The notes: generated from the sequence alone by a model not told the origin. Positions 30,792-55,655 are shown, numbered from the stretch's first letter. The stretch is 64,000 nt of DNA from an uncultured Gemmatimonadales bacterium (GCA_963701155.1 OY969570.1:4728333-4792332); one strand, 5' to 3'. Numbers and translations are program-made.

Positions 30792-30908
30792 GCCGGGGGT
30801 TGAAACCCCCGGCTGGAACCACGGGAAGCCTGCTGAAGCATCGTGTGGGTCCGGCTACCGAGCCCGCTTCAGCGGGCTTCCCGTCTCCCCAGCGGGGGCT
30901 TCAGCCCC
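30792..30908. repeat. REP/BIME-like composite hairpin element (GCTGAAGC type)
   Basis: GCCGGGGGTTGAAACCCCCGGC hairpin; ACGGGAAGCCTGCTGAAGC pairs with GCTTCAGCGGGCTTCCCGT; GGGGCTTCAGCCCC. Confidence 0.6.
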
Positions 30909-31043
30909 TCGTGGCGGAGGCGCACCGATTCCAGCGGATTCGATCTCACGTCGAAACGAGGTGAACGAAGTCCTTCCCTCTGCGGCACCCGGCCGACGCT
31001 CGCTTCTTCACGCCGCGGACGCGGTTCTCAAAGGACCTGTCTC

Positions 31044-33470
31044 ATGCGCACACCACGCCTTCCCGCACGATCGCTCCCGGCCATCCACGACGCCCAGGCG
31101 GCGGGCCTCGTTCTCCGCTCCTCGCTCACGCCCGCCGAGGAGAAACAGGAGGGCATCCCCTTCTCCCAATACCTGGCCGCGGTGCGCCGGTACCTGTGGC
31201 TGGTCGCCGTGTGCGTGGCGTTGTCGCTAAGCTATGCGGTGTACAAGCTCGCCAGGGTGCTCCCCGTCTACGTGGCGAGCACCTCCGTGCGGCTGGTGGA
31301 CACGCGGGTGGGGATGTCCGGCGATCTGGAGCAGACGGGGGGCACCTCGGACCAGCTCCCCGGCTTCTACATGGATCCCATCCTGTCGCAGATCCAGGTG
31401 CTGCGCAGCCGCGCCGTGCTGGGGCAGGTGGTGGACTCGCTGGGGCTGCGCCTGTCGCCCACCAATCCCACGTTCTCCTGGCGCGTGCTGGAGCGCGCGC
31501 GCGTCAACTCGGCCGCGCGCGACGGCGACACGGTGGAGGTCCGCTTCGCGGAGGGCGGCGTCACGGCACGTATGCGGCGGGTGACCGCGCGCGCCGCGTA
31601 CGGAGCGCCGCTTCAGCTTCCGGGAGTGGAGATGGTGTTCTCCGGGCGCCCGGCGTCCGCCTCCGAGTCTTTCGTGGTCATGCCGCAGATGGACGTCATC
31701 GGCACCGTGGGCGGCGGGCTCCAGGTGCGCCCGCGCGAGATGACGAACATCGTGGACATCGCCTACCTGACGCACGACCCCATGCTGGCGCAGCGGGTGG
31801 CGAACGCCGCGGCCGCTTCGTTCCAGGAGTTCAGCACCGAGGCCGCGCGGCAGAGCTCGCGCCGGCGCCGCGTCTTCATCCAGGAGCAGCTTCGCAGCAC
31901 GGACGAGCTGCTCGCCACGGCGCAGTTCCAGCTCAGCGCGTTCCGCAAGCGCGCGGGCTCCATGAACCCGCGCGACAAATTCCGCAGCACCGAGGAGGGG
32001 ATGGGCGCCCTCCTCCTCCGCCGCAGCGAGCTGGAGCAGGAGAAGCAACTGTACGACCAGGTGAGCGGGGCGCTGCGCGGCTCCAACTCCCCGGAGGCGC
32101 TGAACCAGGTGGCCGCGCTGGTGGCCTCGCCCCAGGCGGGAAACAACCGCGGGATGGTGGACCTGTACGACCAGTACCTGCGACTGCAGACGATGCGCGA
32201 CTCGGTGACGACGGGGCCGTGGTCGAGATCCACGAGCAACCCGGACGTACAGCGGCTGGACTCGATGATCCTCACCTCCCGCACGCGCCTGATCCAGGCG
32301 GCCGTGGGGCGTTCCACGGCGCTCGCGGCGCAGATCGGCGTCATCCAGAGCCTGGCCTCGTCGAACGTCGCCACGATGGCCGAGCTTCCCGACGCGGAGG
32401 CCGAGGAGCAGCGCCTGGCCCGGCGTGTGGCCACGCTTCAGACGCTGGCGGACGACCTGCTGCGCGAGCAGCAGAAGGCGCGCATCGACGAGGCGGTGCA
32501 GGTGGGGCAGGTGGAGATCGTGGACCCCGCCGTGGTCCCCGGGGGGCCGATCGGCAAGGGGACGGGGAAGCGCCTGGCGTTCGCGCTGGTGCTGGGGCTC
32601 GCGGTGGGAGCGGGCGGCGCGCTGTCGCTCAACCGCCTCAACGGCTCGATCCTGCGGCGCGACGAGATGGAGTCGCTGCTGAACCTTCCCGTGCTGGGGA
32701 TCACCCCGCGGGTGCAGCGCCTGGCCGGCACGGCCGGCTGGACGCGCCACCTGAACGTTTCACGGCGGGTGCGCGGAAAAGGTGCGCCCGCCGGGCCGCA
32801 GTCGCTCGCCTCAGACGTGCAGTCGCCCGCCGCGCAGGCGTACTGGAAGCTGCGCACGCACCTCCTCTTCGCCGCCTCGGACCAGCCGCAACGGGTGCTC
32901 ATGGTGACGAGCGCCGAAGCGGCGGAGGGAAAGAGCACGGTGGCGGCCAACCTGGCGCTCAATTTCGCGCAGCAGGGGGTGCGGGTCCTTCTGGTGGATG
33001 GCGACGCCCGGCGTGCCCGCCAGCACCGCATCTTCGGCGTGGAGCGCTCGCCCGGCGTGTCCGAGGTGCTGGCGGGCCTCGCTTCCTTCGATGACGCGGT
33101 GCGGTCCACCACCGTCCCGGAGCTCTCCGTGCTCCCGGCCGGCCTGCTCGTACCCAACATCACGGACCTGCTGGAGCGGGAGATGGCCGCGCGGGTCCTG
33201 GGTGAGGCGGTGCGCCGGTTCGAGCTCGTGATCGTGGACACCCCCCCGGTGGCCGCGGCCGCCGATGCCGAGATCCTGAGCGCACATGCGGACGCGGTGC
33301 TCCTGGTGGTGCGCGCGGGGCAGACGGACCGGCGCGCCGCCCAGCACGCGGTGCAGCAACTGCGCGCCGTGGGCGCACCCCTCATCGGCGGCGTGCTCAA
33401 CGACCCGGACGAGAAGACCGAAGGCTACTCGTCCTACAAGTACTACGCCGGCTACCGGGACGAGGACTGA
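31044..33470 (+). CDS. wzc: Polysaccharide co-polymerase / BY-kinase
   Basis: Two TM segments flanking a coiled-coil periplasmic region, AEGKST Walker A, VLLVDGD, VIVDTPP, C-terminal Tyr cluster GYSSYKYYAGY. Confidence 0.92.
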   Translation: MRTPRLPARSLPAIHDAQAAGLVLRSSLTPAEEKQEGIPFSQYLAAVRRYLWLVAVCVALSLSYAVYKLARVLPVYVASTSVRLVDTRVGMSGDLEQTGGTSDQLPGFYMDPILSQIQVLRSRAVLGQVVDSLGLRLSPTNPTFSWRVLERARVNSAARDGDTVEVRFAEGGVTARMRRVTARAAYGAPLQLPGVEMVFSGRPASASESFVVMPQMDVIGTVGGGLQVRPREMTNIVDIAYLTHDPMLAQRVANAAAASFQEFSTEAARQSSRRRRVFIQEQLRSTDELLATAQFQLSAFRKRAGSMNPRDKFRSTEEGMGALLLRRSELEQEKQLYDQVSGALRGSNSPEALNQVAALVASPQAGNNRGMVDLYDQYLRLQTMRDSVTTGPWSRSTSNPDVQRLDSMILTSRTRLIQAAVGRSTALAAQIGVIQSLASSNVATMAELPDAEAEEQRLARRVATLQTLADDLLREQQKARIDEAVQVGQVEIVDPAVVPGGPIGKGTGKRLAFALVLGLAVGAGGALSLNRLNGSILRRDEMESLLNLPVLGITPRVQRLAGTAGWTRHLNVSRRVRGKGAPAGPQSLASDVQSPAAQAYWKLRTHLLFAASDQPQRVLMVTSAEAAEGKSTVAANLALNFAQQGVRVLLVDGDARRARQHRIFGVERSPGVSEVLAGLASFDDAVRSTTVPELSVLPAGLLVPNITDLLEREMAARVLGEAVRRFELVIVDTPPVAAAADAEILSAHADAVLLVVRAGQTDRRAAQHAVQQLRAVGAPLIGGVLNDPDEKTEGYSSYKYYAGYRDED

Positions 33471-33571: not shown

Positions 33572-35377
33572 TCAGCCCGCTTCGCTCTCCTGGGCGCGCC
33601 ACATATCCTGGAAGCGGCCGGGGGTGGACACCAGCTCGCTCCACGTGCCGCTCTGTACCACGCGTCCTTCTTCCATCACGTGCACCGTGTCCGCATCGCG
33701 CACGCTGGCGAGGCGGTGGGTGATGAGGAGCACCGTGATGGTGCCATGCAGCGAGCGAAGCGCGTCGCGGATCCGGCGCTCGTTCTCCGCGTCCAGGGCG
33801 CTCGTGGCCTCGTCCAGCACCAGGAGGGCGGGGCGGCGGAGGAGGGCGCGGGCCAGCGCGATTCGCTGCCGCTCGCCACCGGAGAGGCTCACCCCGCGCT
33901 CTCCCACCCTCGTGTCCATCCCGTCGGGGAGCGCGTCCACGAAGCCGGCCGCCGCCGCCGACCGCAGGGCGGCGCGCAGCTCCTCCTCCGCCGCTTCTGG
34001 GCGTGCCCACAGGAGGTTGGCGCGCACCGTGTCGTCAAAGATCACCGCGTCCTGCCCCACGTAGCCGATCGCGCCCCGCCACACCCGCATCCACGTGCCG
34101 TCCAGCGTGCGTCCATCCACCACCACCCGCCCTCTGGACGAGGACACCAGCCCCGTCGCGATGTCCGCCAGCGTGGTCTTCCCCGACCCGGAGGGCCCAA
34201 CGACCGCCACGGTGGCGTGCGCGGGTACCCGCAGCGTCACCCCCCGCACGGCGTCGCCGCGCGCCCCGGGATAGGCGAACGACACCCCTTCCAGCACCAG
34301 CGCGTCCCGCAGAGAGGCGGGCTCCCCGGCGGGCCCGAGTATCTCCACGTCGCGCTCCAGCTCCGCGATGGTCCGGAGGAGGGGGGCGTACGCGGAGAGG
34401 TCGTGCAGGACCTGCTGATGCACCGCCTGCACCGACTGGAGCCGGGGGACCAGCCGCGCGAACAGGAAGACGAGGAGCAGGGCCACCGAGCCGGGGAGAC
34501 CCACCCACCTCACGGCGGCGAACGTGACGCCCCCCAGGAGCGCCGCGCCCCCGGCCGAGAACACGGCGCCGGAGGTTGCGAACGCGCGCGCTCCGTGCAG
34601 AGTGGCGTCGCGGGCGTCGCGGGCGGCGGCGGCGAGCCGCGCCACGTCGCGCGCTTCGCCACCATGGCTCTTCACCACCTTGACCCCATGCAGGTGCTCG
34701 CCGGCCGCGGCCAGCATGCGGGCTTGAGCCGTGGAAAGGAGTGCGCCGGCCCGGCGAGTGGCGCGTGCCTGCGGGCGGGTGGCGGCAAGGAGGAGGGCGC
34801 CGCACGCCACGGTCACGGCCGCGCCCCCGGGAGACAGGCGCAGCGCCAGCCCCAGGTACACCACCGCCACCAGCGCCTGGGACACCAGCGTGAGGAGCGC
34901 CGCCGCGGCCCTTCCCACTCTCTCCGACTCGTGCGTGAGCGCCTGCAGTACATCGGAGGAGCGGAGCCGCGCCACCGAGGTCCAGCGCGCGCCCGCGAGG
35001 GCGCGGTACAGGCGCAGGCGCAGCGCCAGCGCCACCTCCTGCTCCACGCGCCACCCCAGCAGTGCAAGCCCGCGCAGGGCCAGCGCCTGGGCCGCGGCCA
35101 GCGCCACGTACAGGGCGAGAGCGCTCCCCAGCTCCGGTGAAGCGCCCACCAGTACCCGCGCCGCCGCGGCCATGCGGGCCGACTCGGCGGGTGGCAGAGG
35201 AACCCCCAGCGCCACCGTGACCGCCACCAGCGCCCCCACCGCCATCACCTCCAGCCCCGCCACGGCCATCGCCAGCACGACTCCCGCCACTGCCGCCGTC
35301 CGCGCGCGCCACGCCTCCCGCGCCAGCGCGCGCACGCCGGCCGGAGCGGAGGGTTCGGGGGTGCCAGGTGGGATCAT
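33572..35377 (-). CDS. ABC exporter, fused permease-ATPase (lasso D-type)
   Basis: N-terminal TM domain; GPSGSGKT, LSGGERQR, LVLDEATS, ITHRL. No C39 peptidase domain visible. Confidence 0.9.
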   Translation of the reverse strand: MIPPGTPEPSAPAGVRALAREAWRARTAAVAGVVLAMAVAGLEVMAVGALVAVTVALGVPLPPAESARMAAAARVLVGASPELGSALALYVALAAAQALALRGLALLGWRVEQEVALALRLRLYRALAGARWTSVARLRSSDVLQALTHESERVGRAAAALLTLVSQALVAVVYLGLALRLSPGGAAVTVACGALLLAATRPQARATRRAGALLSTAQARMLAAAGEHLHGVKVVKSHGGEARDVARLAAAARDARDATLHGARAFATSGAVFSAGGAALLGGVTFAAVRWVGLPGSVALLLVFLFARLVPRLQSVQAVHQQVLHDLSAYAPLLRTIAELERDVEILGPAGEPASLRDALVLEGVSFAYPGARGDAVRGVTLRVPAHATVAVVGPSGSGKTTLADIATGLVSSSRGRVVVDGRTLDGTWMRVWRGAIGYVGQDAVIFDDTVRANLLWARPEAAEEELRAALRSAAAAGFVDALPDGMDTRVGERGVSLSGGERQRIALARALLRRPALLVLDEATSALDAENERRIRDALRSLHGTITVLLITHRLASVRDADTVHVMEEGRVVQSGTWSELVSTPGRFQDMWRAQESEAG

Positions 35378-35453
35378 ACCGCTGTCTCGCACGAAGGCAG
35401 GAAGACACAAGGGAAAGCGGCCTCTCCCCGGGGTCGCTTCGTGGGAGCCCCCA

Positions 35454-36605
35454 TCAGCGGGGCCGGCGCGGAAGGTAGCGCATCAGAAGGCGCAGCGGAC
35501 GCACGACGCGGTACGCCGCGAGGAGCCGGTCCGGGAGGGAGAGCCAGGCCCAGTCCTCGGGACCGGGGATCGTGGCCCACCGCCATGCGTAGCGAAGCTG
35601 GTCGGCGCGGGAGTCGCGCGCCGCAAGGTTGAAGCGCAGGTTGGCCGCCGTTTCCTCCTCCGGCTCCGGACCACGGATACGCGCTTCGGCCTCGTCGCAC
35701 AGCGCATCCAGCCCGGGCTCGCGCCCCACCGCGGCGGCGAGCGCGGGCGGGAGCGGGAGGGCCAGAAGGCGTCGCGCGAGGGCAAGGCCCAGCAGAACGG
35801 TGCGTCGCGCTCCCAACGCGGCGGCATGCTCCAGGCACCGGGCGGGATGGGCACCGCCAGACCGGGCGAGCTCGGCTACCGCCACCAGCCACTCCAGCCG
35901 CTTCCAGCGGTGCTTGGCGCCGTGGATGCACAACACCAGGAGGAGGTCGTCGGGCCCGGGCGCGCGCACCTCCGCGCCGCCCACGCGTACCCCCACGGCG
36001 CTTCCGAGCAGCGCCTCCGTTTCCACGGGCATGGCGAAGCGCAGCGACGAGACGCGCGCGTGCAGCTCCACCAGCACGCCGGTGGTGCGGTGCAGGTATG
36101 CCCGGTCCCCATCTACCCGGTTGAAGAGCGCCTCGCGCCCGGGGGTCAGCTTCAGGTGCGGATCGTATCCGCACTCCCGCAGCACCCGGCCCGCGGCGGG
36201 CATGTCCGCGGGGAGTACCAGGAGGTCCAGGTCTGCGAAGTAGCGCAGCGCGAGGTCGCCGTAGACCTGCACTGCCTGCGCGGGCCCTTTGTAGGCGAGC
36301 GACCGGATTCCCCGGGCCTCCAGCGCCTCCGCCAGCCGCCGAAGCTCGCGCGACAGCCGCAGCGCCCGGTGGACGTTGTGGCGGTGGGCCTCCGCCAGCT
36401 CCGCCTCCAGCCCTCCAGGCAGCGCCACGCCCGCCAGGTGGCGGTGCAGGAAGCCGATCAGCCCATGGCGCCGCGCCAGCGCCAGCAGCGCTTCTCCGTC
36501 CAGCGGCCCGGCCGCCACCACACGCAGCCGGCTGGCCTCGCCGGGCGTAAGGGTGAGGCGGGCGCAGAGGAAAAGGACCTCCTCCTCCGGCGTACGCGAG
36601 ATCAT
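35454..36605 (-). CDS. Nucleotidyltransferase family protein (NTP_transf_5-like)
   Basis: AYKGPA...RYFADLDLLV, VELH, LCIHGAKH signature of the uncharacterised NTase found in lasso clusters. Confidence 0.85.
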   Translation of the reverse strand: MISRTPEEEVLFLCARLTLTPGEASRLRVVAAGPLDGEALLALARRHGLIGFLHRHLAGVALPGGLEAELAEAHRHNVHRALRLSRELRRLAEALEARGIRSLAYKGPAQAVQVYGDLALRYFADLDLLVLPADMPAAGRVLRECGYDPHLKLTPGREALFNRVDGDRAYLHRTTGVLVELHARVSSLRFAMPVETEALLGSAVGVRVGGAEVRAPGPDDLLLVLCIHGAKHRWKRLEWLVAVAELARSGGAHPARCLEHAAALGARRTVLLGLALARRLLALPLPPALAAAVGREPGLDALCDEAEARIRGPEPEEETAANLRFNLAARDSRADQLRYAWRWATIPGPEDWAWLSLPDRLLAAYRVVRPLRLLMRYLPRRPR

Positions 36606-36749
36606 CCGGGCTCCCCGGGACCCCATGGGCACGTGGGGGCGCGGCTCGACGCGCCCGCCGCCTGGGCACGGACGGGTCCCGGCGTTCCGGCACGATGGCC
36701 GGCTCGCGCGCGAGCCGGCCGGGATGAATCCTGTCTCACGAATCCGAGG

Positions 36750-37895
36750 TCACCGGGCCAGCCGCTCCGCGAGCTGGCCGGCACGCGTGAGCGCCGCCTC
36801 CCGGGTGGGAAACAGGTGCGGACAGGCAGCCCACAGCGCCGCGGCGATGTCGGCCAGCGTCGCCGTGCCGTCCATCATCGAGAGCGCGGCCGCCTCCGCG
36901 CGCCCTTCGTCGCTCAGGGAGGGGCGGAAGCCGTCGTCGCGCAGGCGGAGGCGCGCGGGCGAGGGCGGGGCCGCGAAGAACGTGGAATGGCGCATCTCCG
37001 CCGGCTCGCGGCCGGGGCGCTCCACCCGCGCACTCCACCCCCACACGTAGTCGCCTCCCGCCCTCCGGGCGGAAAGCTCCGCGCGCACCGTGTCTCCCGG
37101 CTCCACCTCCACGGCCTCGGCCCAGGGAAGGAAGGAAGTGCGATAGGTGGTGCGCGTTCCCGGGCCCGTGTGGAACGAGACGCCGTCCGCCAGCTCCGCG
37201 TGGAACCACACCGCCAGGCCGTGCATCCGGCCGGCGCGCTCCACCGTCCACTCGGGGGTGCCCGCCGCATGTGCGTCGGTGCGGGCCAGATAGTCCAGCG
37301 TGGCCCAGCGCGCCGCGGGAGCCAACTGCTGACCCGGGTCCAGCTCCACGCGCCGCACCGTGTGCACCGCCCGCCGGCGCGCGGCGTCCATGTCGAACCC
37401 CAGTGCGCACTCGTCCCACGGGGCGACGACTTCCGCCCAGGCCGCGGCGGCGTCCACCGGCGCCGCCACCAGGTGGTCGGCGCGCGGGATCATCACGCCG
37501 CCGGGCGCCAGGTGGCGCTCCCGCGCGTCGGCCAGGGAATCGATGATCCCCTGGAAGAGCGGGAGGGAGCCGCGGAGGTCGGACACGATCACGTCCGCGC
37601 GCTCGGGCAGGGTAGCGCGGGTGGACAACGCCTGGATGAACTCGATGCGGTCCGCCACGCCGTTGGCCCGCGCGATCTCCCGCGCCACCTGCACCGCTTC
37701 CGCCGGCTCCAGGGCGAACACGCGCCGCGCGCCGAAGCGGCAGGCGAGCATCGCCATCACCCCCGTTCCCGTGCCGATGTCCAGCACGACGGAGCCGGGA
37801 CGCACGGTCGCCTCCATCGCGCGGGCGTAGGCGTCCATGCGCGCGCGGTCGGCCAGCATCCGGCCGTACCCCACCACGTCGTAGCCGCTCGTCAT
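36750..37895 (-). CDS. PRMT-fold SAM methyltransferase
   Basis: MLADRARMDAY, VLDIGTGTG, LPERADVIVSD, GGVMIP, HGLAVWF: matches the protein-arginine-methyltransferase core plus beta-barrel. ATGA overlap with the kinase. Confidence 0.82.
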   Translation of the reverse strand: MTSGYDVVGYGRMLADRARMDAYARAMEATVRPGSVVLDIGTGTGVMAMLACRFGARRVFALEPAEAVQVAREIARANGVADRIEFIQALSTRATLPERADVIVSDLRGSLPLFQGIIDSLADARERHLAPGGVMIPRADHLVAAPVDAAAAWAEVVAPWDECALGFDMDAARRRAVHTVRRVELDPGQQLAPAARWATLDYLARTDAHAAGTPEWTVERAGRMHGLAVWFHAELADGVSFHTGPGTRTTYRTSFLPWAEAVEVEPGDTVRAELSARRAGGDYVWGWSARVERPGREPAEMRHSTFFAAPPSPARLRLRDDGFRPSLSDEGRAEAAALSMMDGTATLADIAAALWAACPHLFPTREAALTRAGQLAERLAR

Positions 37896-38830
37896 CCGTC
37901 CCGCATCGCGCCGGCCTCGATGCACGCGCACAGCTCGCCGATGCGCGCCGGGTCTTTGTGCGGCACCAGGCGCACCACGCGGGCGCGCGCGGCCACCGCG
38001 CCCAGGCGCACCAGGTCCCGCCCGCGCGCCGCGGCGTCTGGAAGCCACGCCATGTACACGTTGGCCAGCAGGTTCAGCACCGCCTCCGCCGCGGGAAGCG
38101 GCTCCACCCGGGGCGCCCCGTCCTCCTCGCGCCCGGCCAGCACGTAGACGGTGCGCAGCGGAAGCGGTGTGCCATGGAAGGCTTCCATGCGCCGGTAGCG
38201 CTTGTCCCACCCGGCGCTGAGGCGTGGAAGGCCGGCGTCGCCGTACAGGGCGCGCCCCGCCTCCGGCCAGAGCCGCACGACCGGGTATCCCGGCTGCACC
38301 TGCACGGCGTCCGCGGTTTCGATGAGGGGGGAGATGTCGTCGGAGAGAAGGGTGTGGCCGCGCGCCGCGAGTGCCGCGGCGGTGGTGGACTTTCCCGCCC
38401 CGCCCGGGCCACAGACGAGCACCGCGGCGCCCCCCACCTTCACGGCGCTGGCGTGCAGGCAGGTGGCGCCGCGCAGGCGCAGAATGAGCCCCATGACGGG
38501 GCCCGTCAGGTAGGTGGCGGCGTCGTCAAGCGACAGCCCCGCGGGCCAGGTGCACCCCACCCGCGCCCCGTCGGCGCGCACCGTGAACGCCACCCCGTCC
38601 GCGTACTCCAGGTGCAGCCATCCCCGCGCGCGGCGGATCACCAGCGCCGGGCGGTCGCCATCGGGCTCGCGCTCGGCGCGGTACCACACCGGCCCGGGAT
38701 CCGCGGGCGCACCCTCCGGCGCTCGCCCCAAGCGCACATCCACGTCGGCGCCGCCGGAGCCCGCAAAGGGCTCCAGCGTGGGGACGGCGGCGGTGGTCTC
38801 GACGACGAGGCCGTACAGGAGGTAGCGCAA
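37892..38830 (-). CDS. HPr kinase-related peptide kinase (lasso K-type)
   Basis: CLHASAV, GPGGAGKST Walker A, LSDD; directly downstream of the precursor. Confidence 0.85.
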   Translation of the reverse strand: MRYLLYGLVVETTAAVPTLEPFAGSGGADVDVRLGRAPEGAPADPGPVWYRAEREPDGDRPALVIRRARGWLHLEYADGVAFTVRADGARVGCTWPAGLSLDDAATYLTGPVMGLILRLRGATCLHASAVKVGGAAVLVCGPGGAGKSTTAAALAARGHTLLSDDISPLIETADAVQVQPGYPVVRLWPEAGRALYGDAGLPRLSAGWDKRYRRMEAFHGTPLPLRTVYVLAGREEDGAPRVEPLPAAEAVLNLLANVYMAWLPDAAARGRDLVRLGAVAARARVVRLVPHKDPARIGELCACIEAGAMRDG

Positions 38831-38876
38831 AGGAGAGGGGTGGGGCCGCGCGCGGGCGCGTCACGCCGGGAGAGCG

Positions 38877-38935
38877 GAGCCGCGGGTGCGCTCGTTCACG
38901 CCGGCCCGGGGCGCGGCGTGCCCTGAGCGCGGCTC
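38877..38935 (-). other. Stem-loop downstream of the precursor gene
   Basis: GAGCCGCG/CGCGGCTC outer arms and CACGCCG/CGGCGTG inner arms; could stabilise or attenuate the precursor mRNA. Confidence 0.4.
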
Positions 38936-38984
38936 TTTCACGGCGGCACGACCCGCACCGCCGGCGGGGGAAACATGAACCCCG

Positions 38985-39122
38985 TCAGGTCATCGACTGG
39001 GAGCCGTTGCCCGGGTCGTTCATGTTGTTGCTCACCGTCGTAAGAGTGAGCTCGCGCATGTCGCCGTACACCTTGAGGCGCGGCTTGCTGTACGGGCGTC
39101 GCGTGGGGCTCTGCTGCTGCAT
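38985..39122 (-). CDS. Lasso peptide precursor (45 aa), not in the ORF track
   Basis: Hand translation MQQQSPTRRPYSKPRLKVYGDMRELTL-TTVSNNMNDPGNGSQSMT; GGGAG RBS; exact YxxPxLxxxGxxxxxT leader motif; Asp at core position 9. Confidence 0.9.
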   Translation of the reverse strand: MQQQSPTRRPYSKPRLKVYGDMRELTLTTVSNNMNDPGNGSQSMT

Positions 39123-39170
39123 CGTCTTCTCCCTCAAGTGTGCGTCGACGGACGCGTTCCGCCGCGCGTG

Positions 39171-40994
39171 TCACCCCGGCTCGCTTCGCAGCCAGAGCGA
39201 GAGCGCTAGGGGGCGGAGGTCCATCCAGAGCGCTCCCGGGTCCTCCTCCGAAGCGCCGCCGACGCCGCGTGAAAGGCGTGTGCGATCCACGAAGGGCTCG
39301 ATCTCGACTCCCACCGCGCGTCCCCCGATCCACCCCGTGCCGTGGGCGCTCCGGCGGGTCGCGAGCGTGTCTCCCCCGGCGGGTGTCTTGGGCCTTCGCA
39401 ACACCGGCTCCGGAAGGCGTCCCCGCATACCTATCCGTATGGGGCCTTTATCATTATACCACTGCGCGGGGGGAATCGACAACAGCAGCGACACCACCCG
39501 GGTGTCGGCGAACGGCTGGCGCACCTCCAGCGGGACGCCCGTGGCCCACGGTCCGTAGAAGCCGAACAGGTAGCTCCAGAAGGGCGCGGAGAGCTGGGCG
39601 TGCGCTTCGGGGCGGAGCGGATGCGGCGGGGCCGGCAGCGCGCCCTGGGCCCGGACGCGCTCCGCCAGCCCCACGCGCTCCGCCAGCCCCGGCGAGATCC
39701 AGGGCGGGATCGGCGGGGGGGTCCACTCCGGCTGGCCGCGCAGCCAGGTGCGCACGCCGGGGCGCGGAAGGCGGCGGTGGTGCCACGTGTATACCGCCGC
39801 CTCGCCCAGCGCGCGCGCCGGGTGCCCGCCCGCCGCCAGCCGCACCAGCCGCGAGCGGCTTTCGCGCAGCACCGCGTCGCCCCCCATTCCCATCAGGAGC
39901 ACGCGCGAGCGGCCGGCCATCTCGCGCAGCTCGTCGTCGATCAGCGCCAGCAGCGGCTCGGCCACGGGCTGCGCGCGGCGCAGGCGCGGGTCGTCCCAGC
40001 GCTCGAACGCGCGGTACCCGTCCATCGCGTGGAAAAGGATGGGGATGCCGAGCGCCTCCCCCACCATCCGGGCGAAGGGGGGCTCGGGATCGGGGTACAG
40101 CGACTCGCAGTACGCCGTCAGGGCGTGCAGGCGGGTGTTGCGCTCCCCCCGCCCCACCACCTCACGCGCCAGCGCCGCGATCGTGGGAGAATCCCGTCCG
40201 CCGCTCAGGAAGAAGGAGGCGTCGCCCTCCGGCAGCCGGTCGCGCACCGCATCGCGAAGCACCTCCACGAAACGCTCCGAGTACTCCCGAGGGCCCCGCA
40301 GGCGCAGCTCATCGTCGCGCGGGAGATCCCAGAAACGGCGCGTCACGGCACGCCCGTCCTCCAGCACCAGCAGATGAGCGGGGCGCAGGGCCCGCACCCC
40401 GCGCCAGACGGTGGCGTCCTCGTCGAACGGGTAGCCGTGCACCAGGAAGTCCGCGATCCACGCCTCATCCAGCGCCCCGGGAACGCGGGGGTGCAGGCGC
40501 ACGCACTCCGGCGCGCTCGCGAAGATGAAGTCGTCTCCCGCCCACGCGTGGAAGAAGGGCTTGAGGCCGAAGGGGGAGCGCGCGCACAGAAGGCGGCGCG
40601 CCGTTGCATCCCACAGCGCGAAGGCGTAATCCCCCACCAGCCGCTCCACGCACGCATCGCCCCAGGCGCGGTAGGCGCGAAGGATCAGCTCGGCGGAGGG
40701 GGCGCCGGGCGGAGCCGCCTCCCCGGCGCCGCGCAGGCGGCCGAGAAGCTCGGCGCGCGCGTCCACCCGCGCATCGGCCACGATCCAGTAGCGCCCGTCC
40801 AGCGAGAGCGGCTGCGGCGGCTCGGGGAAGGGGTCGCCCGTGGCCAGAAGCGCGTGCGCCAGGCCGGCCGCTCCCACCACGCGCGCCGCGCCCCCGTCCG
40901 GAGCGCGCTGGGCCAGGAACGCGGCCATACGCTCGAGCAACGCCCCGTCCGCGGGCGCTCCGGTGGACGACACCAGCCCGGCGATTCCGCTCAT
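39171..40994 (-). CDS. Lasso cyclase (asparagine synthetase-like, C protein)
   Basis: AsnB fold but begins MSGIAG (no catalytic Cys); VGDYAFALWD, LSGGRDS, GMGGD, EVRQPFAD, LPEPVLRRPK. Confidence 0.9.
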   Translation of the reverse strand: MSGIAGLVSSTGAPADGALLERMAAFLAQRAPDGGAARVVGAAGLAHALLATGDPFPEPPQPLSLDGRYWIVADARVDARAELLGRLRGAGEAAPPGAPSAELILRAYRAWGDACVERLVGDYAFALWDATARRLLCARSPFGLKPFFHAWAGDDFIFASAPECVRLHPRVPGALDEAWIADFLVHGYPFDEDATVWRGVRALRPAHLLVLEDGRAVTRRFWDLPRDDELRLRGPREYSERFVEVLRDAVRDRLPEGDASFFLSGGRDSPTIAALAREVVGRGERNTRLHALTAYCESLYPDPEPPFARMVGEALGIPILFHAMDGYRAFERWDDPRLRRAQPVAEPLLALIDDELREMAGRSRVLLMGMGGDAVLRESRSRLVRLAAGGHPARALGEAAVYTWHHRRLPRPGVRTWLRGQPEWTPPPIPPWISPGLAERVGLAERVRAQGALPAPPHPLRPEAHAQLSAPFWSYLFGFYGPWATGVPLEVRQPFADTRVVSLLLSIPPAQWYNDKGPIRIGMRGRLPEPVLRRPKTPAGGDTLATRRSAHGTGWIGGRAVGVEIEPFVDRTRLSRGVGGASEEDPGALWMDLRPLALSLWLRSEPG

Positions 40995-41000
40995 CGCCCG

Positions 41001-41297
41001 CTACGGCACATCACCGGGAAGCACCTCCAGCAGCCGTCGCGTCGCGAGATCTTCCAGCAGCTCCCGGAGATCCGCATCCACCGTGGCGGCATCCACGTCG
41101 TACTCCGCGGTCACGGCGTCGCGCAGCTCGGCCAGGGTGCGCGGCTCGCGCAAAAGCTCCCACACCCGCGCGCCCACCCCGTCCAGCCCGTAGTACACCT
41201 CGTCGGCGAAGTTGAGGATCACCAGCTCCCCCTCCACCGTACACGAGACTTCGTTGCGCGTCGCGCGCAGGCGCGCTCCGGGCGGAAGCTTCGTCAC
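41001..41297 (-). CDS. PqqD-family RiPP recognition element (lasso B1)
   Basis: GELVILN...YYGLDGVGARVWELL...L.AEYDV...DLRELLEDL; GTG start overlaps the upstream stop. Confidence 0.9.
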   Translation of the reverse strand: MTKLPPGARLRATRNEVSCTVEGELVILNFADEVYYGLDGVGARVWELLREPRTLAELRDAVTAEYDVDAATVDADLRELLEDLATRRLLEVLPGDVP

Positions 41298-41920
41298 CGG
41301 CGGCCCGGGCGGCGCGTCGACTTCAGCAGCACGCCCTGCAGCGCGTCGTGGACGGTGAGCAGCTCGGCCGGGGGGGGGGCGAGGACCGCGTCCGGAAGGG
41401 CGCGCAGCAGGGCATGGTATGCCCGGATGGCTTCCCTCCACCGTCCCGCTTCCGGGAACTCGCCGGCATCATCCGGGCACCCGGCGGGAGGGGCATAGAG
41501 CCCATGCAGCGCGTCCGAAAGCCGGCGAGCCTCCTCCTGCGCACGCGGTGCTCCCCGCGACAGCGCACTCGCCACGGCCGCCGCGTCGGCGGAGGGGGTT
41601 CCCAGCAGCAGCGCCAACACGGCGGGGCTCCCCGCGCCCCGCGGGGCGGCGGCCACGCTGTCGGCATACATGCGGGCCGCGGTGCGCACCGTGCATCCCA
41701 CGCCCGCGCTGCGAAAGCGCGTCCCCAACGCGTCGCTGGCGAACAGCGCGTTCACCGAGCGCAGCCCGGGGCCGGCAAAGCTCCCTCCCGCTGCTCCGCT
41801 CCCCGTGGTGTTCGGAAAGGCGATGTCGGACTGGTTCCCGGACTGCGCCGCGGCACGCACCGGGAGGAGGAACACGGCCGCGGCTGGGGCGGCAAGGCAG
41901 AATCGGAGGATCGGGTGCAT
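41294..41920 (-). CDS. Exported hypothetical protein coupled to the RRE gene
   Basis: Signal peptide ending AAA-Q; stop overlaps RRE start (GTGA). Confidence 0.72.
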   Translation of the reverse strand: MHPILRFCLAAPAAAVFLLPVRAAAQSGNQSDIAFPNTTGSGAAGGSFAGPGLRSVNALFASDALGTRFRSAGVGCTVRTAARMYADSVAAAPRGAGSPAVLALLLGTPSADAAAVASALSRGAPRAQEEARRLSDALHGLYAPPAGCPDDAGEFPEAGRWREAIRAYHALLRALPDAVLAPPPAELLTVHDALQGVLLKSTRRPGRR

Positions 41921-41937
41921 CGGTGATGCCTCGCTGC

Positions 41938-43044
41938 TCAGAAGATGTGCGGAATGCGGAAGCCGTACCCCACGGACGCGATCAGCCGTGCGCCGTCGCC
42001 CGCGCTTCCCGTGATGTCCGCCACTCCCACGGTGGCCACCACCGGGACGCGCCGCACGGGGCGGACCGAGACGGCGGCGTACAGGTCCTGCCCGGTCCAA
42101 TCGGCGCTCAGGGAGACGGGCTCCGCGACCCGCACGCCCACCGCGCCGAACACGTTCACCGTTTCCCGGCCCGCGACGACGTCCTCCTCGCTGCGGAAGC
42201 GGCCGTTCCCGATTCCCAGCGTCAGTGCGGCGGACGAGAAGAGCGCGGACGATGCCTTTCTCAGTTGCAGGAGGCGCGTGGCGGCTCCGTACACGCTGAC
42301 TCCCGCGTCCGTCCGTCCCCAGCGGACCCCGTTCTCCACCCCGACGGCAACCGCCAGATCGCGACCGAACGCGCGATGCACTTTGGCGCTGAGCGAGCCG
42401 TCGGAGAACGGGCCGCCGTCGTGCACGGTGGCGTACGAAGTCGCCGCGAGCTCCACCGCCACGAAGCGGTCACGGTCGCCCAGCCCCACGCCCAACACGA
42501 GCGCGCCGTCCTGAAGGTCGGTGTAGCGGGTACGCGCCTGGTACGCGCCCCCCGCGAATGCTTCGCCGCCGTGCAGGGCAAACGCGGTCGGTGAGCTCAC
42601 ACTGGCTCCGGGAACGGCGATCACTCGCTCGCGCAGGGGCAGCAGCGCCAGCCGGCTCCTCCACTCCTGAGGGCTCAGCGAGGGGATCTCCTCGCGCGTC
42701 ACCGCGCTCTCCACGGGGCGAGTGGCCGCGGCGGGCGCGGCGGGCGCGGCGGGCGCGGCGGGTGCGGCGGGCGCAGCGGGTGCGGCGGGTGCGGCGGGTG
42801 CGGCGGGTGCGGCGGGTGCGGCGGGTGCGGCGGGTGCAGCGGGCGCGGCGGGTGCAGCCGGGGGAAGCGGCGCGACCTCGCCGCTCCCACGCTGCTTCCG
42901 GACCGGCATCCCCGGTCTCCTCGCGGCTGGGCGGGCCACGGCGGTATCGCTCCCGCTCGGCAGCGGCCGCTGCTGGGATTCCAGGCACGTGTGCCCGGCC
43001 AGGACGAGCGTGGTCAGGAGAAGACCCGTACGGTGCGAGAGCAT
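41938..43044 (-). CDS. Probable outer-membrane beta-barrel protein with Pro-Ala linker
   Basis: Signal-like N-terminus, (PAA)n linker, alternating beta strands, terminal aromatic end [10 protein letters not shown]. Confidence 0.68.
42728..42862. repeat. 9-bp tandem repeat, about 15 units (GCRGCGGGY), encoding PAA
   Basis: Counted directly in the sequence. Confidence 0.9.
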
Positions 43045-43213
43045 GTGGATGGCGGATGACGGAGGGAGCTGCGCAGGGCACGGAAGTCATTGGCGCACCG
43101 GCGAATATGGTTCCATTGGAGGCGTGGGGCAAGGGAACTCGCTGGACGGCGCGGGGGGAGCGCCGATACCTTGCGCATCCCTTCGTCCTCCCCACCGCAA
43201 TCCGGGAAATAGA

Positions 43214-43828
43214 ATGCACCGCGCGCTCACCGCGTTCTTTGTGCTGGCCCTCGCGGCCCTTCCCGCGCGCGCCGCAGCACAGTCGGTCTCCCCCGACACC
43301 ATCTTCGTGCGGCCCGGCGACGCCATCCAGCTCGCCGTGTGGCGCCAGCCCGAGCTGTCCGGCGAGTTCCCCGTGGGTTCGGACGGGACGATCCAGCACC
43401 CGCTGCTCAGCTCCATCGCCGTGGCGGGCGTCCCGCGCTCCGTCATCCGCGAGCGGCTCACGCAAGCTCTCTCGCGATTGGACCGGGAGCCCCACTTCGT
43501 TTTCGACTTCCGCTACCGAGTCGCGGTGGGAGGTGACGTGCGGCTCCCCGGCCTCTATCGCATCGCCCCGCAGACCACCGTGGGCGAAGCAATCGCCACG
43601 GCTGGGGGAGCCAACGCCAGCGCACGGCTGGATCGCGTGATCCTCGCGCGCGCCGGCAGCCAGATCGTGGTGAACTTGCGAGATTCGGACGCGGCCGCCT
43701 ACTCCGTCCCGCTTCGCTCCGGCGACGAGATCCGGGTTCCCCGCGCGCGCGTCATCCTTCGCGACATCATCGGCCCGTTGGCCGCCGTGGTCGGAGCCAT
43801 GGGCGCGGTCGTCTCCCTCTTCCGATAG
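43214..43828 (+). CDS. wza: Polysaccharide export protein (Poly_export + SLBB, short Wza-like)
   Basis: RPGDAIQLAVWRQPELSGEFPV..DGTIQHPLL, VGGDVRLPGLY, LRSGDEIRVP, C-terminal amphipathic helix. Confidence 0.85.
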   Translation: MHRALTAFFVLALAALPARAAAQSVSPDTIFVRPGDAIQLAVWRQPELSGEFPVGSDGTIQHPLLSSIAVAGVPRSVIRERLTQALSRLDREPHFVFDFRYRVAVGGDVRLPGLYRIAPQTTVGEAIATAGGANASARLDRVILARAGSQIVVNLRDSDAAAYSVPLRSGDEIRVPRARVILRDIIGPLAAVVGAMGAVVSLFR

Positions 43829-45173: not shown

Positions 45174-46307
45174 TCATGCGCCCAGCCGCGCGACCTTGAA
45201 GAGCGGCAGGTAGATGCCGAACACCAGCGTCGCCACAAGGCCGAAGACGAGGAGGATCAGGACCGGCTCGATCAGCTTGGCGGCGGTGTCCACCTCTTCG
45301 AGGACGAACTCCTCGTAGTACTCGGCGAGGAGCTCCATCTGCTCGGGGAGGGTGCCGCCCGTCTCGCCGACGCCGGTGCTGGAGAGGACCTCGGCGGGGA
45401 TAGCGCGCGTGCGCTCCAGCGCTTCCTCCACCCGCATCCCGGCCCCCACGTCCGCGGCGGCGGAGCGGATCGCATCGGCCAGGTGGTGGTTGCCCAGCGT
45501 GTCCGCCGACATGCGCATGGCGGACGAGACGCCTACGCCGCCGAAGAGCATGGTGCTGAGCATCCGGCAGTACTGAGCCATCGCCCCGCCCTCGGCCAGC
45601 GGCCCGACCACGGGAACCTTTACCAGGTAACGGTCCGTGGCGCGCCGGATTCGCGGACGCGCGTAGAGCCGCGCGAGCCCCATCCCGGCTCCGGCGGCCA
45701 CGAGCAGGACGCCGGGCCCCAGCCGCGTCGCGGTGGCGGACGCCCACAGGAGGGAGCGCGTGACGGCGGGAAGCTCCACCCCCGCGTCGGCGAAGATGCT
45801 CGCGAACTGCGGCATGATCCGGGTGAGCATGTACCAACCCACCAGCCCCAGCGCCACGAGCACGAACACGGGGTAGATGGCGGCCGACCTGATCTTCGCC
45901 CGCACCTGCTGCGTGCGGTGAAGCGCCGTGCCCATGCGCTTCAGCACCACGTCCAGCGAGCCGGTGCGCTCGCCCACGGCGACGCTCGCCACGTAGCTGG
46001 GCGGGAAGACTTTCGGGTGCTCCTCCATGGCGTCGGCGAGCGTGCTCCCCGACTGGACACGTACGGTGATCTGGTCCACCACCCGGCGCAGCGCCTTCTG
46101 CGCCAGCCGGCGGCGGAGCACCGCGAGCGCGCCCGCCGGCGTCAGCCCGCTGTGGAGGAGCGAGGCCAGCCGGCGCGTGAAGAGCATCATCTGCTTCTTC
46201 GGCACCCGCCCGCCGCCGAGCTCCAGCGCCAGGAACCTGCGCAGCGCCGGCGGCGCCGAGATGGCGGCCATACCGCTCCGTTTCCGAGTGTGAGCCGCGA
46301 CGTTCAT
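45174..46307 (-). CDS. pilC: Type II secretion/type IV pilus platform protein (GspF/PilC)
   Basis: FTRRLASLLHSG, GERTGSLD, AAIYP, GETGGTL, IEPVLI, IYLPLF; ATGA overlap with PilB stop. Confidence 0.92.
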   Translation of the reverse strand: MNVAAHTRKRSGMAAISAPPALRRFLALELGGGRVPKKQMMLFTRRLASLLHSGLTPAGALAVLRRRLAQKALRRVVDQITVRVQSGSTLADAMEEHPKVFPPSYVASVAVGERTGSLDVVLKRMGTALHRTQQVRAKIRSAAIYPVFVLVALGLVGWYMLTRIMPQFASIFADAGVELPAVTRSLLWASATATRLGPGVLLVAAGAGMGLARLYARPRIRRATDRYLVKVPVVGPLAEGGAMAQYCRMLSTMLFGGVGVSSAMRMSADTLGNHHLADAIRSAAADVGAGMRVEEALERTRAIPAEVLSSTGVGETGGTLPEQMELLAEYYEEFVLEEVDTAAKLIEPVLILLVFGLVATLVFGIYLPLFKVARLGA

Positions 46308-48073
46308 CCCTGCATCGTCTCCCGCGTCACCTCCGCCAGCGTCGTCTCCCCCGCCCGCATCCGCTCGATCCCCGCCTGGCGCAGCGTCGTCATCCCCTCC
46401 GCCACGGCGAGCGCGCGCAGCTCGGCGCCGGGGCGGCGCGCCACGATCGCATCCCGCAGCGCCGGTGACAGCGGCATCATCTCGAATACACCGATCCGCC
46501 CGAAGTAGCCGCTGCGGTTGCAGTACGAGCACCCCGCCCCCGCGCGGAAGGGGATCTCCGCAGCTTCCGCGCGCGCAAGGCCGGCGCGGCTGAGCTCGTG
46601 CGCGGACGGAGCGTACTCCCCGCGGCAGCGGGGACAGATCCGGCGCACGAGGCGCTGCGCCACGACGAGCGAGAGGGCGTCCACGAGGTTGTACGGCTCG
46701 ATGCCGATGTCCAGCAGGCGCGCCACGGTAGAGGGCGCGTCGTTGGTGTGGAGGGTGGAGAGGAGCAGGTGCCCCGTCATCGCGGCCTTGACCGCGGTGC
46801 CGGCGGTCTCCGCGTCGCGGATCTCGCCCACCATGATGACGTCGGGGTCCTGGCGGAGGATGGAGCGGAGCGCGGTGGCGAACGTCATCCCCGTGCTCGC
46901 GCCCACGGAGGTCTGCCGGATGCCGCGGATCTTCCGCTCCACCGGGTCCTCGATGGTGATGATGCTGCGCGCCGGATCGTTCAGGTGATCGAGCGCGGCG
47001 TAGAGCGTGGTGGACTTGCCGGAACCCGTGGGGCCCGTCACCAGAATCATCCCCTGCGGGCGCTCGACGGCCTCGGCGAAAACGGTGTGATCGCGCCCCG
47101 CCATCCCGACGCTCGACAGCTCCACCGGCGTCTGGGCGCGGGCCAGAACGCGGAGGACGGCGTGCTCGCACCCCCAGTCGGTGGGGAGGGTGGAGACGCG
47201 CAGCTCCACCTCGGCTCCGTCTTCCAGCACGTGCTTCATCCGCCCGTCTTCCGGGATGCGGTCCTGCGCCGAGTTCAGGCCTGACAGCACCTTGATGCGG
47301 TTGACGATCTCGCGTCCCCAGGTGGGGTCCAGCTCCCGCGCCACCACGAGCTGCCCGTCGATGCGGTAGCGGATGCGGCCCTGGTGGTCAAAGAACTCGA
47401 AGTGCACGTCGGATGCGCGCTTCTTGACGGCGTCTTCGATGAACGCCTCCACCATGCGCGGCACCTGCGCGCCGCGCACCGCGTTCTCGATCTCGTCGGA
47501 GATGCTGGCCCGGGCGCGCACCCGCGCTCCGCTCCGCTGCGCCTCGCCCATGACGCGGTGGAGCTTGTCTGCCCCCGCGTACGCGGTGCGCAGCAGGGTG
47601 TCGAGCGAGTGGTCGTCCGCCAGGAGCGGCACGGGCGAGAGCCCGGTGATGTCGCGGATGCGGCTCAGCGAGGCGAGGTCGTACGGGTCCCCGTTGGCCA
47701 CCCACAGGTCGCGCCCCTCCACGCGCAGCGGGACCACGCGGAGCTGCCGCGCCGTCTCCCCGTCGATCAGCTCGAGGACGCCGCGGTGGGGGCGCTCGGC
47801 GGCCAGGCTCACCGTCTCCACTCCGAACACCCGCCCCAGCACCTCCAGCGCGCGGCCCACGGTAAGGCGTTCCATCTCCACCAGGTGGAAGATGGCGCTG
47901 CGCCGCTCGCGGTCCGCCGCCGCCGCCTGGTACGCCTCGTCCACGTCGCGCGGCGCCAGCTCCCCGGCCTCCAGCAGCGGGCGGACGATGCGGTCCTGGA
48001 TCGCACCCTCGCGCTCGCGCTGGCCGGCACGGGACAGCTCGGTGGCTTCGAGCGTGGGCGGTTCGCCGTGCAT
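46304..48073 (-). CDS. pilB: Type IV pilus/T2SS assembly ATPase (PilB/GspE); in frame with the upstream SLT
   Basis: ASDVHFE, RYRIDG, PEDGR, GPTGSGKST, TIEDPVE, RQDPDVIMVGEIRD, CPRC...CSYC. Internal ATG 48073 would give 589 aa. Confidence 0.92.
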   Translation of the reverse strand: MHGEPPTLEATELSRAGQREREGAIQDRIVRPLLEAGELAPRDVDEAYQAAAADRERRSAIFHLVEMERLTVGRALEVLGRVFGVETVSLAAERPHRGVLELIDGETARQLRVVPLRVEGRDLWVANGDPYDLASLSRIRDITGLSPVPLLADDHSLDTLLRTAYAGADKLHRVMGEAQRSGARVRARASISDEIENAVRGAQVPRMVEAFIEDAVKKRASDVHFEFFDHQGRIRYRIDGQLVVARELDPTWGREIVNRIKVLSGLNSAQDRIPEDGRMKHVLEDGAEVELRVSTLPTDWGCEHAVLRVLARAQTPVELSSVGMAGRDHTVFAEAVERPQGMILVTGPTGSGKSTTLYAALDHLNDPARSIITIEDPVERKIRGIRQTSVGASTGMTFATALRSILRQDPDVIMVGEIRDAETAGTAVKAAMTGHLLLSTLHTNDAPSTVARLLDIGIEPYNLVDALSLVVAQRLVRRICPRCRGEYAPSAHELSRAGLARAEAAEIPFRAGAGCSYCNRSGYFGRIGVFEMMPLSPALRDAIVARRPGAELRALAVAEGMTTLRQAGIERMRAGETTLAEVTRETMQG

Positions 48074-49075: not shown

Positions 49076-49328
49076 CGGAACCGGTGGAGGAGGTGCGCGC
49101 GCCGACACTGGACTCGCTACATACGAGATACCCCGGGTGCGGGAATGCGGCTCCCGGCAACCGCGATTTGCGGTGAACACGGCCAGGGTGAGAACGGCTT
49201 GGCTACGGCGATGACTGCTTTGGAGCGCGGAGGGGGTTTGGCGACGACGGAGGTGCCGATCCGGGGTATCTACAAGGAGGGACATCGAAGATCCCGGACA
49301 CAGCTCTCCCGTCATCCCGCACCGCGCC

Positions 49329-55552: not shown

Positions 55553-55655
55553 CGTTTGCCAGCGGTTCTCGCCCCGGTGCGCCGCTTCAACGGGAGGCGG
55601 CCCGCGGGGAGCCTCCAGCCGCCGCCATCGCGCCCTCACAACCAGGAGACAGCCA

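Follow-up and report, generated by a model that had tools for sequence, protein, structure and literature searches.

A probable lasso-type peptide gene cluster with a PRMT-fold methyltransferase and no neighboring B2 protease gene in a Gemmatimonadales genome

Interest in lasso peptides comes from their promise as stable scaffolds for drugs and probes, and it is mainly tailoring enzymes that have widened their chemistry. The closest described relatives of the system analyzed here, a candidate lasso-type operon in a 64,000-nucleotide stretch of DNA from an uncultured Gemmatimonadales bacterium (GCA_963701155.1 OY969570.1:4728333-4792332; the whole stretch is hereafter called the window), are lasso clusters that carry a peptide kinase. 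Pseudomycoidin of Bacillus pseudomycoides is encoded by psmCAKB1B2ND, in which PsmN, an uncharacterized nucleoside triphosphate (NTP)-transferase, is needed for the hexose on the C-terminal phosphoserine; the peptide was made in Escherichia coli and Bacillus subtilis without PsmB1/B2 (PMC6993621). In the paeninodin cluster of Paenibacillus dendritiformis, the linear precursor receives a phosphate on its C-terminal hydroxyl residue from an HPr-kinase homologue (PMC8498205, PMC9266682). The bsf cluster of Bradymonas sediminis, a Gram-negative lasso biosynthetic gene cluster with A, B1, B2, C, D, K and N genes, has a kinase that is stimulated by the recognition element (RRE) for ribosomally synthesized and posttranslationally modified peptides (RiPPs) (PMC10368454). 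The pseudomycoidin authors also noted a cyanobacterial cluster without B proteins, in Stanieria cyanosphaera PCC 7437; by the description given there, this putative cluster has genes for a cyclase, a precursor and a kinase resembling PsmK, and it lacks B2 (PMC6993621). These reports provide precedents for kinase and nucleotidyltransferase (NTase) chemistry, for maturation that does not depend on B proteins and for a cluster that naturally lacks them (PMC8498205, PMC6993621).

By its predicted gene content, the window operon is close to the paeninodin and pseudomycoidin clusters. Like psm, it encodes an RRE of the split-B type, an HPr-kinase-like kinase, an NTP-transferase and an ATP-binding cassette (ABC) exporter, together with a cyclase that is predicted here to be of the lasso type; in both, the precursor is short, carries a YxxPxL leader and ends in a hydroxyl residue. 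Unlike the window, psm encodes B2, has no methyltransferase, uses a C-terminal Ser as acceptor, forms an Ala1-Glu9 ring and belongs to a Firmicute; the window instead has a C-terminal Thr, a predicted Thr1-Asp9 ring, a methyltransferase (MT) with the fold of protein arginine methyltransferases (PRMTs), two extra secreted or outer membrane proteins and no B2. The paeninodin cluster, which is of the kinase type like that of the window, has B2 and a precursor ending in Ser, with no NTase or methyltransferase. The kinase motif spacing of bsf is that of the window, whereas BsfK phosphorylates core Ser3, the leader has Ile-2, B2 is present and there is no methyltransferase. The Stanieria cluster reportedly lacks both B proteins and contains a conventional glycosyltransferase, whereas the window keeps B1 and has the PRMT-fold MT.

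The window has a G+C content of about 75%, at which long spurious open reading frames (ORFs) are plentiful, and genes were therefore assigned from third-position GC content (GC3) and frame periodicity, with domains assigned from Pfam and NCBIfam profiles. An unbroken run of nine minus-strand genes, all intact and with strong codon bias, occupies positions 33572 to 43044 (Table 1). An earlier reading of this DNA, made from the sequence only (the sequence-only reading), had proposed here a lasso-type operon of seven genes, encoding an RRE, a cyclase, a precursor, a kinase, a PRMT-fold MT, an NTase and an exporter. All seven were present on the minus strand with coding-type GC3 periodicity, and the profiles suggested for checking (PF00733, PF05402, PF14907 and the HPr kinase profile PF07475) all matched, PF07475 barely. 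The range given also contains two genes that were passed over, encoding an outer membrane protein (OMP)-like product and a 208-residue protein (p208). The coupled junctions that had been noticed are present as well: the kinase stop overlaps the MT start as ATGA, the p208 stop overlaps the RRE start as GTGA, and 6 nt separate the RRE stop from the cyclase ATG, while the remaining junctions are gapped by 45 to 150 nt. The nearest named relatives were Longimicrobium spp., in agreement with the suggestion that the host probably belongs to the Gemmatimonadota. We consider it quite probable that the operon is a lasso-type ribosomal peptide gene cluster belonging to a widespread, uncharacterized subfamily defined by RRE, AsnB-like cyclase, precursor, kinase and PRMT-fold MT, in which NTase, ABC exporter and B2 each occur in only some members.

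The product of the 45-codon ORF, MQQQSPTRRPYSKPRLKVYGDMRELTLTTVSNNMNDPGNGSQSMT, is the predicted precursor. Its gene has the highest GC3 of the region and a Shine-Dalgarno-like GAGGGAG a few bases 5' of the ATG. The peptide divides into a leader, MQQQSPTRRPYSKPRLKVYGDMRELTL, and a predicted core, TTVSNNMNDPGNGSQSMT; leader residues Tyr-17, Pro-14, Leu-12 and Thr-2 are those of a canonical lasso leader, counted from a cleavage site one residue past the leader Thr, the same numbering being used for the recognition residues in PMC10368454. The sole acidic residue of the core is Asp at position 9, which fits the 7 to 9 residues of lasso macrolactam rings (PMC8498205), and a ring closed between Thr1 and Asp9 is predicted. 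The gene is conserved in three related loci (L003, L004 and L001; loci are given L numbers throughout), and a profile built from four copies and run against related loci recovered 59 distinct precursors next to homologous cyclases. The small ORF is thus not a chance occurrence, and the doubt initially attached to it, that it might not be conserved beside such cyclases, was not borne out.

The family precursors follow the pattern Y-x-x-P-x-L-x-x-Y/F-G-x5-T-x at fixed spacing, with the leader motif intact in every copy and Thr-2 in 58 of 59. A [KR]T pair lies inside the last five residues in 43 of the 59, and 20 end in Thr, as the window precursor does. Gly makes up about 20% of the residues in tails past the ring Asp, and aromatic residues are missing from 49 of the 59 tails. 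With the register set by the four leader residues, 25 of the 59 precursors have their first acidic core residue at position 9 and 25 more have it at position 10 (family loci such as L004:11899-12033, L039:9725-9943 and L044:8831-9016; Asp is at position 10 in, for example, L004 and L039). The position-10 group comprises most Longimicrobium copies and several B2-bearing clusters, and its members would have either 10-residue rings or a cleavage site shifted by one residue. Two precursor genes with different cores, often in tandem, were seen in L009, L010, L011, L014, L017, L021, L027, L045 and L053.

The cyclase begins with MSGIAG, as had been remarked of an AsnB-like enzyme lacking Cys2: Ser2 replaces the glutaminase Cys2, and an SGGRDS PP-loop is present. 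In true AsnB enzymes, position 2 carries the N-terminal nucleophile Cys. The N terminus reads M/V/L-S-G in all 39 family cyclases examined, with Ser2 invariant whether or not B2 is present (window positions 40986-40994). The best NCBIfam model was the lasso cyclase NF033535 (257.5 bits against a cut-off of 525), followed by AsnB TIGR01536 (149 bits) and a PEP-CTERM amidotransferase model (139 bits); all scores are below the curated cut-offs, which marks the protein as a divergent member, and no solved lasso cyclase matched it by sequence. Grouping with true AsnB enzymes, which would have spoken against a lasso cluster, was therefore not observed, and a true asparagine synthetase was rejected on the absence of Cys2, the preference for the lasso cyclase model, and the adjacent RRE and precursor. 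For the RRE, the closest solved relative was the lasso RRE TbiB1 (5v1u; E 4.4e-17); it scored above the cut-off of PF05402 and reached 49 bits against a cut-off of 80 for lasso_PqqD_Bac NF033536. Together with the canonical leader, these two best matches support the original assignment to lasso clusters of the kinase/NTase kind.

The operon lies between Wzc-like and Wza-like Poly_export genes, downstream of a 25-kb glycosyltransferase cluster, and its AsnB-like protein is also a weaker match to the PEP-CTERM amidotransferase model; the kinase, MT, NTase, ABC exporter and AsnB-like enzyme could on these grounds serve the surrounding exopolysaccharide locus and make no peptide at all. This is almost certainly not the case, since lasso cyclase and lasso RRE models gave the best matches and the same genes occur together with RRE and precursor in many phyla among unrelated neighbors, such as the isoamylase and topoisomerase IV genes of L083.

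The kinase passes PF07475 by the narrowest of margins (33.4 bits against 33.3) and falls far under the cut-off of HprK_rel_A (36.8 bits). Its motif H-x14-G-x2-G-x-GKS-x15-DD has, however, a spacing identical to that of the BsfK catalytic residues H148/G163/G166/G168/K169/S170/D186/D187 (PMC10368454). The NTase has a D-L-D metal-binding motif (DxD) and a strong PF14907 match. In place of the C-terminal Ser acceptor taken as a mark of kinase/NTase lasso clusters, the window precursor ends in Thr, a plausible and, by comparison with the C-terminal Ser modified in paeninodin and pseudomycoidin, likely phosphate acceptor.

The MT consists of a Rossmann domain, a PRMT beta-barrel and an extra C-terminal three-helix domain (residues ~329-379). 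An AlphaFold2 (AF2) model from a 28-sequence alignment had a mean predicted local distance difference test (pLDDT) score of 89, and its best Foldseek matches were PRMT6, PRMT1 and PRMT2, with target-normalized template modeling (TM) scores of 0.74 to 0.86 at about 25% identity; a profile search against PDB sequences likewise returned PRMT6 (E 2e-43). The PRMT fold, already recognized in the sequence-only reading, is thus confirmed at the level of the modeled structure. The S-adenosylmethionine (SAM) motif DIGTGTG is nearly invariant in the family, with D39, G41, G43 and G45 invariant. In alignment with PRMT6, the Glu pair of the double-E loop is replaced by Asp106 and Gln115, and the THW loop reads T-x-Y (T-T/I-Y). 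Since the double-E and THW residues, which in PRMTs bind the guanidinium of the arginine substrate, are gone, the enzyme should not be filed as an arginine methyltransferase, and no arginine is conserved in the precursor cores. It therefore shares with type I PRMT1/2/6 the two-domain fold and the GxGxG SAM motif but differs from them in its bacterial origin, its Asp...Gln and Thr-x-Tyr loops and its additional three-helix domain. The consensus of that domain resembles the helical part of PqqD RREs, although a comparison of the two with hhalign was not significant (probability 11.6% over 25 columns).

Lasso methyltransferases listed in reviews are of the O-methyltransferase and protein isoaspartyl methyltransferase (PIMT) types only (PMC9266682, PMC13352647). 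Like the window MT, the C-terminal O-methyltransferases of the StspM/LasF type and the PIMT-type LihM/TceM carry out SAM-dependent tailoring of lasso peptides or precursors; StspM/LasF, however, resemble small-molecule O-methyltransferases and LihM/TceM isoaspartyl methyltransferases, whereas the window MT has a type I PRMT fold with beta-barrel and helical domain. In the literature, no description was found of a PRMT/PrmA-type methyltransferase in lasso clusters, nor of lasso clusters in Gemmatimonadota. The Lys/Arg before the terminal Thr is a candidate methyl acceptor in the family; the window has Met there, yet its MT is the protein best conserved between the window and L003 (88%), so that this Lys is not the only target. 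Other possible sites are the phosphate, the C-terminal carboxylate and an amide nitrogen.

The distribution of the MT was examined by scanning its alignment over one genome per species, which gave 80 loci and, with others found separately, a total of 83. The 80 loci span Acidobacteriota, Cyanobacteria, Chloroflexota, Myxococcota, Heliomicrobium, Binatia, Methylomirabilota, Nitrospirota, Verrucomicrobiota, Proteobacteria and others. A cyclase homologue lies within 9 kb of the MT in 54 of the 83, and among these cyclase-bearing loci a kinase was found in 52, an RRE in 48, B2 in 36, an NTase in 27 and an ABC exporter in 19. The frequency of kinase and RRE at these loci indicates that the MT is a dedicated component of the lasso subfamily. 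Synteny is kept at 50 to 57% protein identity in Longimicrobium and at 30 to 45% in Acidobacteriota, Cyanobacteria, Chloroflexota, Myxococcota, Heliomicrobium, Binatia, Methylomirabilota and others; homologues of the cyclase and MT at 50 to 60% identity are abundant in Longimicrobium metagenome-assembled genomes (MAGs) and soil metagenomes. By homology, this set of MT, cyclase, kinase, RRE and precursor genes recurs as a group at no fewer than 54 loci in more than 10 phyla and constitutes a large, uncharacterized, predicted lasso subfamily. The proposal of a new system thus stands in part: the subfamily is undescribed in the literature found, but it is not a one-off, since the same gene set recurs in many phyla.

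Longimicrobium contigs keep the order OMP-p208-RRE-cyclase-precursor-kinase-MT-NTase-ABC, with a divergent Wza-like gene upstream. A minimal cluster was seen in Longimicrobium terrae (L001:10001-14191, JACHOW010000005.1), where cyclase, kinase and MT genes are accompanied by a convergent gene for a 47-residue precursor; no RRE, B2, NTase or ABC exporter was detected there within 10 kb.

The sequence-only reading had treated the cluster as complete, which proved mistaken: B2, present in most orthologous clusters, is absent from the window. In 9 of 11 non-Longimicrobium loci examined, an ORF of about 155 codons lies between RRE and cyclase, with the motif NCLxxSL..WW.L...G....LRIG.R.....AHAWVE, and Pfam identifies it as PF13471, the B2 protease. 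A hidden Markov model (HMM) built from nine family B2s detected B2 in 40 related loci, including the 36 cyclase-bearing ones. With filters off (hmmsearch --max, E <= 100), the same HMM found none in the window or in Longimicrobium loci L001 and L003-L009, nor was B2 found within about 10 kb on each side of the MT in L044 (Methylomirabilota), L047 (Acidobacteriota) and L083 (Gammaproteobacteria). In L044 and L083, the neighbors with a Pfam match are housekeeping genes. Since B2 is the usual state across phyla, its loss in these lineages is the parsimonious account, and the window holds, by predicted gene content, the B2-less version typical of Longimicrobium (Gemmatimonadota).

Two candidates for the missing activity were set aside. 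Signal peptides are present in p208 and in all six homologues read, whereas cyclization needs cytoplasmic ATP; p208 is therefore unlikely to be the leader peptidase. A fusion of B2 to the NTase, of the kind reported for some Firmicutes (PMC8498205), is ruled out by the lack of a B2 signal in all frames of the window.

The pathway could nevertheless be canonical, with ordinary leader removal by a PF13471 B2 supplied in trans, for example from another lasso cluster. The 64 kb visible here are a small view of the genome, B2 proteins of this family occur in Gemmatimonadota MAGs labeled Longimicrobiales, Gemmatimonadales and Gemmatimonadetes, and the precursor retains Thr-2, the classical B2 recognition residue. 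Set against this are the lack of B2 within about 10 kb in seven Longimicrobium clusters as well as in L044, L047 and L083, the demonstration of B-independent maturation in the related psm system (PMC6993621) and, as a weak point, the observation that none of the best 120 relatives of a Longimicrobiales B2 query is named "Longimicrobium sp.," although many cyclase and MT matches are. We regard supply in trans as doubtful but far from negligible. Loss of B2 might alternatively have inactivated the pathway and left its genes to drift, and the unusual 115-nt MT-NTase spacer with its palindrome could be seen as a further sign of decay. The nine ORFs, however, are intact, with strong codon bias, catalytic motifs are kept, the leader motif survives in every precursor copy, and the B2-less gene order persists across Longimicrobium lineages at 50 to 57% protein identity. 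Intact genes in a stable order over such distances argue against decay, and a decaying remnant is very improbable.

In the route that we propose for the lasso-type subfamily, whose steps beyond the sequence features are drawn from homology, the kinase would phosphorylate the linear precursor, most likely at Thr18, the counterpart of the C-terminal Ser in paeninodin and pseudomycoidin; a Thr at the C terminus or close to it is what the subfamily conserves. The PF14907 enzyme would then place a hexose on the phosphate, as PsmN does, and the PRMT-fold enzyme would add at least one methyl group, probably at a site other than arginine. The leader would be cut after Leu-1 by a protease from outside the cluster; candidates are a B2 from another part of the genome and a housekeeping peptidase, as with pseudomycoidin made in E. 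coli and B. subtilis. The cyclase would activate Asp9 with ATP and join it to the new Thr1 amine, giving a 9-residue macrolactam. Finally, the ABC exporter would secrete the product, and the OMP-like and periplasmic proteins may aid outer membrane crossing. As judged from the genes, the product is probably phosphorylated, sugar-decorated and methylated; the increments of +80, +14 and +hexose expected in the sequence-only reading are extrapolated from paeninodin and pseudomycoidin.

Several observations weigh against this assignment. B2, a defining lasso component, was not found in any frame of the 64-kb window with the HMM and settings given above; cyclase, RRE and kinase all score under curated NCBIfam cut-offs; and the product is a prediction from the genes. 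Thr at core position 1 is unusual for characterized lasso peptides. The window core has Met where most family members have Lys/Arg before the terminal Thr, so that family-level expectations for that position may not apply. No RNA runs were among the sequencing runs sharing words with the locus, which are soil, biocrust and air DNA metagenomes. The roles given to the OMP-like protein and p208 are guesses, and both may belong to the flanking polysaccharide-export genes. The window tail, PGNGSQSMT, has no bulky plug residue, so that stable threading would depend on groups added at the C terminus, and the unmodified pseudomycoidin obtained in the absence of kinase and NTase was reportedly unthreaded (PMC6993621).

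These last two points, together with the scarcity of aromatic residues and the Gly content of family tails, are also what would be expected if the product were a never-threaded, head-to-side-chain branched-cyclic (lariat) peptide, made by a lasso-derived pathway that yields no true lasso. Conservation of the complete lasso-type enzyme set across phyla speaks against such a product, as does the proposal that a C-terminal phospho-hexose acts as a lock (PMC6993621); a lariat is a minority possibility that we nonetheless take seriously. A more ambitious version of the lasso-type assignment would hold that small Gly-rich tails cannot retain the thread; that the lock is built at the conserved C-terminal (K/R)-T from the phospho-hexose supplied by kinase and NTase and from methyl groups contributed by a PRMT-fold enzyme that has been adapted to a substrate other than arginine; that maturation is B2 independent in Longimicrobium and several other lineages; and that about half of the family forms 10-residue rings, larger than any known lasso. 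That all of these elements are correct at once is speculative and rather unlikely.

Table 1. Features of the operon region in the window, with strand and basis of assignment
Feature	Position	Strand	Basis
OMP-like secreted protein, 368 aa, first operon gene	41938..43044	-	coding GC3 pattern
p208, secreted, 208 aa	41294..41920	-	coding GC3; stop overlaps RRE start
B1 / RRE, PqqD family, 98 aa	41001..41297	-	PF05402, E 4e-17
AsnB-like macrolactam (lasso) cyclase, 607 aa	39171..40994	-	PF13537 + PF00733
Putative promoter-like site TTGTCG-18-TATAAT, TG extension, TGGTATAAT	39453..39482	-	only sigma-70-like match in 10 kb
Predicted precursor peptide, 45 aa	38985..39122	-	GC3 0.93, Shine-Dalgarno-like site, conserved leader
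HPr-kinase-like peptide kinase, 312 aa	37892..38830	-	PF07475, 33.4 bits
PRMT-fold SAM-dependent methyltransferase (MT), 381 aa	36750..37895	-	PF06325 + PF22528
Perfect 24-nt GC palindrome, GGCCGGCTCGCG/CGCGAGCCGGCC	36697..36720		115-nt MT-NTase spacer
PF14907 nucleotidyltransferase (NTase), PsmN-like, 392 aa	35454..36632	-	173.6 bits, E 7e-51
ABC exporter, fused permease + ATPase, 601 aa	33572..35377	-	PF00664 + PF00005

Neither of the two upstream proteins matched any Pfam, NCBIfam or PHROG model, and both were found only in Longimicrobium versions of the cluster. The OMP-like protein has a signal peptide and a low-complexity (PAA)n stretch and is predicted to be an outer membrane protein; at this position it is conserved only in Longimicrobium L003-L009, at 54 to 68% identity. 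The stretch near its N terminus is encoded by a 9-nt tandem repeat (42728-42855, minus strand; 14.2 copies, 92% matches), which gives a spurious "collagen" Pfam match on the opposite strand. The p208 family has 33 representatives among 1.84 billion proteins compared all against all with HMMER, and a single-sequence AF2 model of p208 had a pLDDT of 45. The operon structure is what suggests a link of these two proteins to the peptide. The ABC exporter resembles HepA, MsbA and NHLP-bacteriocin exporters, with every NCBIfam score below its curated cut-off.

The putative promoter-like site falls within the cyclase gene, in its 3' part and about 330 nt 5' of the precursor ATG, in a patch where 10 of 23 codons end in A or T (TGG TAT AAT GAT AAA ... 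ATA ... ATA), against a genome GC3 of about 0.9. L003 has the same nucleotides; L007-L009 share TGGTATAATGA, which L004 and L006 do not. The palindrome in the MT-NTase spacer is a single exact match, with 0 expected by chance, and is possibly a transcript-processing or attenuation hairpin; in L004, the MT and NTase genes abut and the spacer is absent. No terminator or attenuator was seen after the precursor gene, where the predicted folding of the 160-nt spacer did not exceed that of shuffled sequence (z = -0.86); among intergenic spacers, a terminator-like hairpin was seen only in the one separating the NTase and ABC genes.

The operon is flanked by a Wzc-like gene (30843-33470; GNVR/AAA_31) and a Wza-like Poly_export/SLBB gene (~43200-43828, plus strand). 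The Wzc-like gene is part of a large exopolysaccharide-type locus (~5776-33470, plus strand), in which GT4, GT2 and GT1 glycosyltransferases and two methyltransferases form a cluster of about 25 kb that precedes the operon. The Wza-like neighbor is conserved in L003-L005, and the operon is thus wedged between export genes. Farther along the window, positions 45174-49675 (minus strand) carry type II secretion or type IV pilus-like genes, including one for a T2SSF protein; a stop-to-stop ORF of 1,123 codons in this interval, combining SLT transglycosylase, MshEN and T2SSE ATPase domains, could represent a fusion or two separate genes taken as one. A 625-codon ORF (55401-57278, plus strand) has no Pfam match at E <= 1e-5, and a 1,599-codon ORF (58696-63495, plus strand) shows strong coding bias.

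If confirmed, a PRMT-fold MT associated with lasso genes in more than 10 phyla would add a new class to the RiPP tailoring enzymes. It would also be one of the rare cases in which bacteria use the PRMT fold, with a substrate that is apparently not arginine. Clusters of RRE and cyclase without B2 would challenge the minimal A/B/C definition used in genome-mining tools, by which many have probably been missed. The precursors would further provide a test of enzymatically added groups as a steric lock and of rings of more than 9 residues. The basic picture of lasso biosynthesis would thereby be extended, not changed.

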